Assembly: GCA_000934665.2 (NCBI GenBank)
Contig: JYFJ02003264.1
Coordinates: forward strand, 1-44,216
Direction: 5' to 3'
Source of the DNA: Catajapyx aquilonaris
Lineage: Eukaryota
Length of the DNA stretch: 44,216 nt
Made by a program: the position numbers and the translations under genes. Under the pieces are notes generated by a model. The model searched no databases. It saw only the letters and a program-made list of their open reading frames with translations, and had not been told where the DNA came from. Below are positions 14,101-17,100 of this stretch, one piece after another (the first letter of the stretch is position 1; every line of letters starts with the position of its first letter).

Positions 14101-17100
14101 ATGACTTCTCATGGAGGCATATGGGTGGGCATGCTCTGCTGGCCACTCCGTCTCGTCCGATGGCTGCCGCGCCTTCATGTAAGGTGCAAGTTGAGGAAGG
14201 ATCAACGTATCTGCCCATGCTCATTTTTACCCAGTGCATCGCATGGTGTAAAAACTGTAGCATCACTAAACTTACTTTCCGACTGCCCCTCGTAGTATGG
14301 AGAATTTTCAGATGGTTCAACCTCTGATGAGCAGGTAGTTAATGTTGTTATTTATGAGTGGTACAGAACAATTCAATTTTAGTTTCGCTAGTGAAAACCG
14401 TATCCAGGCTTGGATGCCCTTGTTGAGCAAGAAAACCTGCCATCACATCTCACGAGATTGTGAGCTTGGTAAGAATCATAATGTCACAATCTTTTACGGA
14501 AGACTTTCTTCAAAGTACTCCTATGTTATTACCAATTCCAATTCATAAAAAGTATGCATTATGCACAGTACATAAAAATTCATCAAAAATTTAGCTCAGA
14601 ATTTAAAATTCAACACTCAAACAGCCTTACTGGTTATAAATATTTGGTTCTAAGCACATGCAACCTTACAGATCAATCATCTGATGGGCTCTAGGGTGTG
14701 ATTTATAAATATTGTCAAAATTGTAAAACTCCTAAATTATTAAAATTTAGACAGTGCATTTTTAAAGTTTTGTTAGTTTTGTGACACATACAGAACCTTG
14801 TAGCAAAAATATTGTCAAGCCCTGTGATGTTTCTGTGCAGAGATGATAATTGCACATTTCCAACCCTAAAGGTGGTGGAAGCAAAAATTTCAAAAATGAT
14901 TGTGCCAAATTTTGCAATTTATTTTTGCACATTTAATGGATTGTTTGTCGTATATGAATAGTGTAATGAGAACTTGGAAAAATATGTTTCCCAAAACAAA
15001 GACATCATTACAACTCTTAACAAGCTCAAAATCAGAGATGTGAGGGCAGGATTCCTTGCTTAGGAAGGGTGTCCAAGTCTAGCTTACCTATTAAATACTT
15101 GATGCTTTTAAAGTCACTATCTTGTCACAAGACTGAATGCATGGGTATAAAATCAACTGCTTCCATTTTATAATTGCCACACAATGATTCCCTCCATACT
15201 AACTTGAATTCACCTTATGTGAAGGAACAAAAATCTTATGCACAAAAGCAATTTTCCTCGCAATTTTCAATACTACCAATGATACAGACACCATGCATAG
15301 ACATGACTTCCAAATCATCAAAGTATCATTAACTGGGTCGTTCGTGATCAAACTCCCTCATTAGATTCTCATGGCCAACATGATCTGAGCATTTTCAAAA
15401 GGCAAGTGCAAATGGACATACTGACTACGCACTTGGAATGAGGGCAATTCCACATGCAACATTGATTAAAGGAAGGGCCCAGTTGGCTCTGTGGAGCGCA
15501 TTGGGCTGCATGGTCTTCAAGCGGCCAAAAGTGGGAGACAGAGTGCCCTGCTCTCCCTCTCGATGCGTGCTACTTTCCAAGAGGGATAAAGGGGACCAAT
15601 CTATAAAATGAAGAGAAAATAAAAAGAACAGTGGAAAAGCAACATAACAAAACAAAATAAACTGCATCAACAGTGCCAGATGTGTAGCATGCCCATCCTG
15701 TTGGTCTCAGACCGTAACAAAACATAATTGCAGTTTCCATGCATACCAGGATTCCTACTAACCATTTATCTTGTAAAGAACTGCATTAAGAGCGCGCTCT
15801 AGGCTACGCTATTCATTGTTGCGGGTAGCCTGTCGCGGGCCGGCCCGTGAGTTTGACACTTCTTCCTCTCGCTGTCACGGCCGCAAATATGGAGGTATCG
15901 GCATGAAACTGGAGTATCTGGACGCGAAGGGGTTGCACTTTGAGATGGTGCGCTTATTTTTTTCCTGGGGCGATATTTGCGGCCGCCGTGGCCAGATACA
16001 GTTTTTTATTTTGACCGGCAATAACTTCTTTCCATGTCGGTACCAGTGAAATTCGAGAGCGTCACGACCTTTGTACGGCGAATTACCGTAAGTGTGTGAA
16101 AGGGCACGAGTGTGGCAGTCTTGGTTTGGCCAAACTTTGGTATCGAAAATACCCCCCTTCATGAACAATAACAACTCGCAAGAAGAAAGCGACGATCTGG
16201 CAGTGCCGCGCTGACTGCTAAGACACAGCGTTACCAACTGTGCCACCCTTGACTTGTTTACATCGTTTTAATAATTATTAGCGCTCTACTTTATCCGGCC
16301 GTCGCCGTGGTTACCGAACTGGCAGTCAGCGCGGCGCTGCCAGATCGTCGCTTTCTTCGTGCGAGTTGTTATTGTTCATGGAGGGGGGTATTTTCGATCC
16401 CAAAGTTTGGCCAAACCAAGACTGCCACACTCGTGCCATTTCACACACTTACGGTAATTCGGCGTAAAAACCTCGTGACGCTCTCAAATCTCACTGGTAC
16501 CAACATGGAAAGGAGTAATTGCGGGTCAAAATAAAAAACTGTACCTGGCCGCGGCGGACGCAAATATCGCCCCAGGAGAAAAATAAGCACAGCATCTCAA
16601 AGTGCAACTCTTTCGCGTCCAGATACTCCAGTTTCATGCCGATACTTCCATATTTGCGGCCGTGACAGCGAGAGGAAGAAGTGTCAAACTCACGGGCCGG
16701 CCCACGACGGGCTCCCCGCAACAATGGATAGCGTAGCCTAGAGCGCGCTCTTAAGAATGATATTAATAAATCCTGGTAATAAGCAGTGAAAGCCAACTAT
16801 GACTATTAGCATCAATTCTAAACTATTCAATTTGAAATAACCGGACTCCATGTAAGTCTTCATCATGCACATAAAAATGGGCAAAGACAGTGGCACTGGT
16901 AACTCATGGTTTACACCAATAATTTAACTTACACTTTTGGAGCTATACAAATAAGTGTTTAACACTTGCATTAAAATATTTGCAGATAAATTTTAAAACC
17001 CTCCCATTTTTTTTCCAACTTTGCCCCCGCCACATTTGCTACTTAAAATATGACTTACATGCCCATTCTCAAGTCTCATTAACGGAAATTGAGTTACTTA

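Follow-up and report, generated by a model that had tools for sequence, protein, structure and literature searches.

In the Raf gene of Catajapyx aquilonaris, the large intron between the CR2 exon and the exons of the kinase half contains a hidden coding exon (positions 15600-15433, minus strand) that is read here as an in-frame hinge cassette. Skipping of this exon would give a Raf protein of 754 or 761 amino acids, while its inclusion would give one of 810 or 817 amino acids; a probability of roughly 0.87 is assigned to this reading. Splicing both ways probably occurs in Catajapyx aquilonaris, and models for both the inclusion and the skipping form are seen in Daphnia and Folsomia. The insert opens with a variable stretch of about 40 residues that is probably disordered and closes with a conserved hydrophobic motif of 16 residues that probably forms a helix, and the exon is best read as an old pancrustacean Raf hinge cassette. 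The preliminary description of this DNA had proposed that the exon gives rise to a kinase-less isoform resembling mammalian DA-Raf. The analysis confirms the hidden coding exon and does not support the kinase-less reading.

Host Gene

The stretch of DNA that was analyzed (44,216 nucleotides of contig JYFJ02003264.1, referred to below as the window) contains one Raf gene, which lies on the minus strand and has 13 constitutive coding exons. The coordinates of the gene and of the features discussed here are collected in Table 1. The frame of the skipping form is open and encodes 754 residues, or 761 residues when exon 3 ends at its GTGAGT donor at 20362, with the kinase intact. The product is arranged as an N-terminal helical region followed by the RBD, C1, CR2, and a full kinase; the RBD and C1 were assigned by likeness to Pfam-scanned homologues. 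In a tree of 30 Raf proteins the window Raf groups with the pancrustaceans (100/99) and falls outside the winged-insect clade (89/98, not starred); this tree gives no order of the window Raf with respect to springtails and Daphnia.

Two further features of the gene were observed. The end of exon 3 offers two in-phase donors on the minus strand, at 20383 and 20362, which are 21 nt apart and could produce a 7-residue variation ahead of the RBD. Past the Raf stop codon, neither AATAAA nor ATTAAA occurs within 1.8 kb (11100-9300, minus strand), suggesting that the 3' UTR is long or that another signal is used.

Table 1. Positions of the Raf gene, its proposed hinge cassette, and associated signals in the window
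Feature	Position	Strand	Basis
Host Raf gene	11101..26840	(-)	13 constitutive coding exons, open frame; pancrustacean by tree
Upstream exon with a phase-1 end and the 14-3-3 serine site of CR2	18139..18404	(-)	
Acceptor AG (15602-15601) and pyrimidine tract	15601..15661	(-)	41/50 pyrimidines; rank 5/296
Putative 168-nt cassette exon, both ends in phase 1, with 56 residues inserted between CR2 and kinase	15433..15600	(-)	Open frame; homologous inserts at the same junction
Predicted helix at the exon end: conserved hydrophobic motif of 16 residues, uncharged	15434..15481	(-)	Homologue alignment and single-sequence model
Donor GTGCGT (CAA/GTGCGT, slash at the exon end)	15427..15432	(-)	Rank 10/332; within the range of the gene's own donors
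TAG that begins at intron base six; read only without use of the 15432 donor	15425..15427	(-)	Translation
AATAAA, 502 nt beyond the TAG, compatible with chance	14918..14923	(-)	Composition expectation
Downstream hinge exon, leads to the kinase exons, starts in phase 1	12699..12853	(-)	

Splice Sites and Reading Frame

The candidate exon sits inside a phase-1 intron of 5.3 kb (18138-12854). Its acceptor is preceded by 50 bases of which 41 are pyrimidines and by about 60 nt that hold no other AG, and it ranks fifth among the 296 AGs of the intron when these are scored with a matrix made from the gene's own acceptors. The preliminary description had called this acceptor strong and in phase with the upstream exon, which ends at 18139 in phase 1, and had reported the peptide that follows, a TAG at 15427-15425, and an AATAAA at 14923-14918, all of which are confirmed. 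The accompanying statement that no strong donor precedes the stop does not hold, as CAA/GTGCGT at 15432 ranks tenth among the 332 GTs of the intron and lies within the range of the gene's own donors. This site scores 5.9, while the gene's own 12 donors score 1.0-11.2 when each is left out of the matrix in turn (median 6.9), so that two of the 12 are exceeded; it fits the consensus at six of nine positions, where the gene's own donors fit at five to eight, and it is one base off the gene's own CAA/GTGAGT donor. The donor at 15432 is moderate, ordinary, and frame-keeping. The other in-frame GTs in the exon, at 15573 and 15453, were rejected as candidates; they rank 245 and 154 of 332 and their use would remove all or part of the motif.

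Joining 18139 to 15600 and 15433 to 12853 yields a Raf protein of 810 or 817 residues with no internal stop and an intact kinase. The cassette takes up 56 of the 58 codons in its open reading frame, with the donor five bases ahead of the stop. Consequently, of the fallback proposal in the preliminary description, a short cassette exon with a weak donor, the cassette is supported and the word short is not. The length of 436 residues that had been given for a kinase-less product is correct with the GTGAGT donor of exon 3 at 20362, while use of the donor at 20383 gives 429. The composition of the intron leads to an expectation of 0.35 AATAAA per 700 nt (0.76 when ATTAAA is counted as well), and the AATAAA at 14923 therefore carries little weight.

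TGCATG hexamers and one ACTAAC are found in or near the exon on the minus strand (15297, 15458, 15743, 14662, 13262, 14777), and the raw count of TGCATG in the intron is seven. We take these to be binding words of Rbfox and Quaking/How proteins, respectively.

Homologous Inserts in Other Pancrustaceans

A search with the upstream CR2 exon found 28 proteins, including a Daphnia galeata Raf (P0013) that has an insert at the same junction with a similar motif at its end; the cluster of P0013 includes RefSeq models of D. pulex, D. pulicaria, D. magna, and D. carinata. A profile search added Allacma fusca and Folsomia candida, which have the same motif at the same junction (best 120 of 247 matches listed). 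This profile search was recruited via the downstream exon and included the window motif, and it thus favours matches that carry both kinase and motif. Across the 230 proteins compared (for the profile search, the best 120 of 247 matches) the motif is present in 19, comprising 12 from Daphnia, two from Allacma, and five from Folsomia, that is, three genera represented mostly by gene models. All 19 reach the HRD motif of the kinase, among the matches listed. When the 198 complete hinges among these matches were scored, 17 scored at least 43.6, all of them from Daphnia or springtails, and the other 181 scored no higher than 11.8.

The window motif aligns with its counterparts without gaps, matching eight of 16 residues in Daphnia (four species), seven of 16 in Allacma, and six of 16 in Folsomia, over a 16-residue span that was picked after viewing the Daphnia match. 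Taken alone, the pairwise Daphnia match is weak (23.5 bits, 9/17 identical). A profile made only from the Daphnia and springtail sequences places 15481-15434 first of the 40,824 stop-free 16-mers in the six frames of the window, with a score of 39.2 versus 20.2 for the next best (z 7.4). The same result is obtained within the intron when the two groups are used separately, as the window motif is first of 2351 intron 16-mers with the springtail-only profile (36.0 versus 11.5) and with the Daphnia-only profile (42.5 versus 25.5). Furthermore, the springtail exons and the window exon share a start consisting of an acidic residue-W-x-P.

The models from Daphnia (XP_046631066.1, XP_046444053.1), Folsomia candida (XP_021962645.1), and Allacma fusca (CAG7832712.1) resemble the window exon in junction, phase, and terminal motif, and in these models splicing continues into the kinase. 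The insert has 69 residues in Daphnia, 46 in Folsomia, and 56 in the window, and the variable part of the window exon differs from that of the Daphnia and Folsomia exons in both length and sequence. In Daphnia, Allacma, Folsomia, and the window, the changed junction residue comes directly after the motif, placing the homologous donor at the position of the window GTGCGT; the exon boundaries of the homologues were deduced from protein pairs rather than read from DNA. The window donor lies 16 codons and one base after the start of the motif, as deduced for the homologues. By these comparisons, exon 15600-15433 is the homologue of the exon in the Raf models of Daphnia, Folsomia, and Allacma.

Broader searches were also performed. 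The motif was not found in the annotated winged-insect or chelicerate Raf proteins compared, a comparison made at the protein level. Use of the exon peptide alone as query gave 14 candidates, none at E<=10, Pfam returned no family for the exon, and the ESM Atlas gave no usable match with the Allacma exon as query. A HMMER scan of 1.84 billion representatives returned three matches that were judged to be chance and set aside; these are large repeat proteins that match the variable part in several stretches, one with LRR repeats, one with Calx-beta/FG-GAP repeats, and one with Calx-beta and calcium-binding repeats.

Inclusion and Skipping

Both forms of the hinge are represented among the relatives. 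For Catajapyx aquilonaris, a look-up of RNA runs over 11500-19800 listed none, a result that says nothing about expression. The D. pulex and D. pulicaria models X1-X4 contain all four combinations of the 69-residue insert and an 8-residue microexon, and all have the kinase. Models X1-X4 of Folsomia carry the motif while X5 skips the 46-residue insert, and the Orchesella Raf model is the skipped form. RefSeq models of this kind rest on RNA-seq. Among the Logan assemblies, the 497-residue open reading frame P0038 (eight contigs, the longest 2029 nt) runs unbroken from the CR2 exon through the insert to the kinase, and P0039, on a contig of about 2 kb, is the insert-skipping form that runs from the CR2 exon to the kinase. 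Daphnia genomic open reading frames break at these junctions. Since the contigs of about 2 kb are uninterrupted where the genomic frames break, P0038 and P0039 most simply represent spliced transcripts. The hinges of the relatives also differ in their microexons, as Daphnia has the additional 8-residue microexon after the cassette (P0030/P0010) and Allacma has one of nine residues before it (P0192). Scans on both sides of the window exon gave no look-alike of the Daphnia or Allacma microexons.

Structure and Proposed Function of the Insert

From the CR2 serine to the start of the motif there are 75 residues, and the kinase glycine loop follows at a distance of about 75. A further 44 residues lead to the RARS-site serine and 32 to the glycine loop, and this spacing is similar in the homologues. 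The motif is uncharged and has a mean hydropathy of 1.0-1.8. A single-sequence model predicts a helix over exon residues 33-53, with a pLDDT of about 72-81 in the last two blocks. The AlphaFold2 prediction of the Folsomia inclusion isoform (44 sequences) was uninformative, with a mean pLDDT of 46 and about 30 over the insert, as was, in either direction, a modelled complex between the kinase domain and the exon peptide of Folsomia (score 0.07 versus a mark of 0.34). A transmembrane role was judged unlikely, the motif being too short and weak for a clear membrane-spanning helix (best 19-residue hydropathy 0.82-1.52). The usual hydropathy mark for a membrane helix is 1.6.

A short conserved hydrophobic helix within a variable linker is typical of docking motifs, and the insert appears to follow this pattern. 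Given that the exon is used, the slightly favoured proposal is a docking function, in which the motif helix would touch either the regulatory or kinase surface of Raf itself or a partner protein. In some tissues, docking of this kind would tip Raf toward or away from its closed, 14-3-3-bound state relative to the active one, an effect like that reported for B-Raf exons 8b and 9b. Shallow contact of the motif with the membrane is a less likely function, and action of the insert purely as a spacer is marginally less likely again. By analogy with mouse B-Raf exons 8b and 9b, the insert most likely serves to tune the closed state, or contact with a partner, in an isoform-specific manner. It is about as likely as not that the motif is a short linear motif, so far undescribed, that regulates Raf and has been kept since the branchiopod-hexapod split and lost in winged insects.

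Comparison with Known Raf Isoforms

Optional hinge exons have been described for vertebrate B-Raf, where exons 8b and 9b are in-frame, lie in the hinge that links the 14-3-3 serine of CR2 to the kinase, and leave the kinase in all isoforms (PMC3008692). In mouse B-Raf, 8b lowers and 9b raises activity via autoinhibition and phosphorylation of S365 (PMC3008692, PMC3189609). The window exon is similar in that it is an in-frame exon between CR2 and the kinase (168 nt, phase 1-1) that keeps the kinase. Included and skipped forms are on record for Daphnia and Folsomia, and alternative use of the window exon is probable. In contrast to 8b and 9b, it is pancrustacean and ends in a 16-residue hydrophobic motif; the likeness is one of position and frame, and no homology is claimed. 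By this analogy, the window exon probably tunes autoinhibition or docking.

The resemblance to DA-Raf is more limited. DA-Raf1 and DA-Raf2 are splice forms of mouse A-Raf that have no CR2, no 14-3-3 binding, and no added exon (PMC2064279, PMC12540644). DA-Raf acts as a dominant-negative on Ras-ERK signalling. A hypothetical product ending at the window TAG would be like DA-Raf in keeping the RBD and CRD (CR1), the exons for which lie upstream, and in losing the kinase, and also in arising from an unused donor followed by an intronic stop and a poly(A) signal. Unlike DA-Raf, such a product would keep CR2 and the 14-3-3 site (a serine in exon 18404-18139) and would gain 58 residues. The mRNA of DA-Raf ends ahead of the kinase through intron retention and intronic polyadenylation. 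The window has a stop and an AATAAA that are compatible with chance, and the homologues splice onward. As it is the absence of CR2 that defines DA-Raf, a window product that keeps CR2 would not be a DA-Raf.

Alternative Interpretations

Dual use of the exon is improbable, and the short-linear-motif reading is much likelier. Under dual use, the exon would usually serve as a cassette, and in some cells the 15432 donor would be ignored, so that translation would stop two codons later and the transcript would be cleaved near 14918. The result would be a Ras-binding, kinase-less Raf of 429 or 436 residues with the hydrophobic motif helix as its C-terminal tail. If so, a single exon would let the gene alternate between making a tuned kinase and making a membrane-leaning decoy that evolved apart from mammalian DA-Raf. 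The donor at 15432, being only moderate and exceeding just two of the gene's own 12 donors, could allow such use, and the TAG at the sixth intron base gives a layout like that of mouse DA-Raf1, in which the TAG starts at the second base of the retained intron (PMC2064279); an AATAAA follows 502 nt further on. However, an in-frame stop soon after any donor is common by chance, as is an AATAAA within 700 nt (0.35 expected), and none of the kinase-less entries among the 28 matches of the CR2-exon search carries the motif, most of them being open reading frames that run into introns. The product would also keep CR2, whereas the efficient Ras binding of DA-Raf is ascribed to the absence of CR2 (PMC12540644), and the tail is too weak for a clear membrane anchor, with a best 19-residue hydropathy of 1.39.

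It is more doubtful still that the exon is a relic, inherited together with the homologous exons but no longer spliced in Catajapyx aquilonaris. The motif is missing from the winged-insect Raf proteins compared, suggesting that loss does happen, and a foldback transposon lies 185 nt upstream of the acceptor. Against this, the window exon has retained its two splice sites, its open frame, a length that is a multiple of three, and the motif, intact and ungapped, which would not be expected of an exon long dead.

The least probable reading is that the exon serves mainly or solely to make a terminal, DA-Raf-like isoform, as the preliminary description had proposed: the strong acceptor, the frame open to the stop, and the downstream AATAAA fit it, but the frame-keeping donor lies in the homologues' register, exactly where the homologous insert ends, all 19 motif-bearing homologues (among the matches listed) keep the kinase, and CR2 would be kept.

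Hinge Inserts in Other Arthropods

The in-frame cassette of Catajapyx aquilonaris has company in other arthropods. Inserts without the motif occur at the same junction in Ischnura (43 residues, P0076/P0183), Oratosquilla (74 residues, P0211), and Limulus (40 residues, P0050/P0008), as seen against shorter isoforms, and the Raf hinges of Ladona (P0077) and Ephemera (P0093) are long. In motif scoring, the inserts of these five genera reached 11.4 at most, and they were ruled out as carriers of the motif. That several arthropods have their own unrelated inserts in the same part of the hinge suggests that hinge exons were gained repeatedly.

The Nymphon striatum entry P0020 (KAG1650969.1) is a 462-residue kinase-less Raf model that ends after the downstream hinge exon and may be a prediction artefact. 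It does not contain the motif.

These observations suggest that optional exons have arisen in the Raf hinge again and again among arthropods, and that the compact gene of Drosophila is a poor guide to the ancestral state. Splicing of the Raf hinge has been described as a feature of vertebrate B-Raf, and exons 8b and 9b have been called vertebrate B-raf-specific and absent from Drosophila and C. elegans raf (PMC3008692). No description of an arthropod Raf hinge exon was found in a literature search whose coverage was mostly of papers outside subscription and without supplements. Because automatic gene models already contain the exon and its function is drawn from inference, this is a modest advance. 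The 16-residue motif, being in register across water fleas, springtails, and the Catajapyx lineage, is a concrete candidate for a new Raf contact.

Intron Repeats and Neighboring Genes

The intron that holds the cassette also contains repeats. A foldback (MITE-like) element at 15786-16754 has arms of 433 nt that are 94% complementary and is flanked on both sides by TTAA; of 310 candidates in the genome, 40 were scored and gave 44 matches at 92-100%. The element stops 185 nt short of the cassette acceptor, on its upstream side, and in the pre-mRNA it could fold into a long hairpin and so influence inclusion. The exon region itself has one match in the genome. A transposon origin of the exon was ruled out on the grounds of this single match and of the end of the foldback element 185 nt upstream. 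A second, decayed inverted-repeat element with nested arms that are 75-80% complementary is located at 13561-14326 in the same intron.

Three other loci in the window were noted. A glycosyl hydrolase family 47 gene (Pfam PF01532, E 6.5e-42) lies at about 28200-31000 on the plus strand, head to head with Raf and about 1.4 kb from the Raf start codon; it is presumably EDEM-like. On the minus strand, at about 34800-42600, there is a SWI/SNF ATPase gene with HSA and Helicase_C domains, which we take to be brahma-like. At 5443-7927 on the plus strand, convergent with Raf, are three long open frames of 161, 184, and 193 residues. Pfam returned no family for the first two of these (161 and 184 residues), and the frames may resemble a membrane protein of the brambleberry/GEX1 type.
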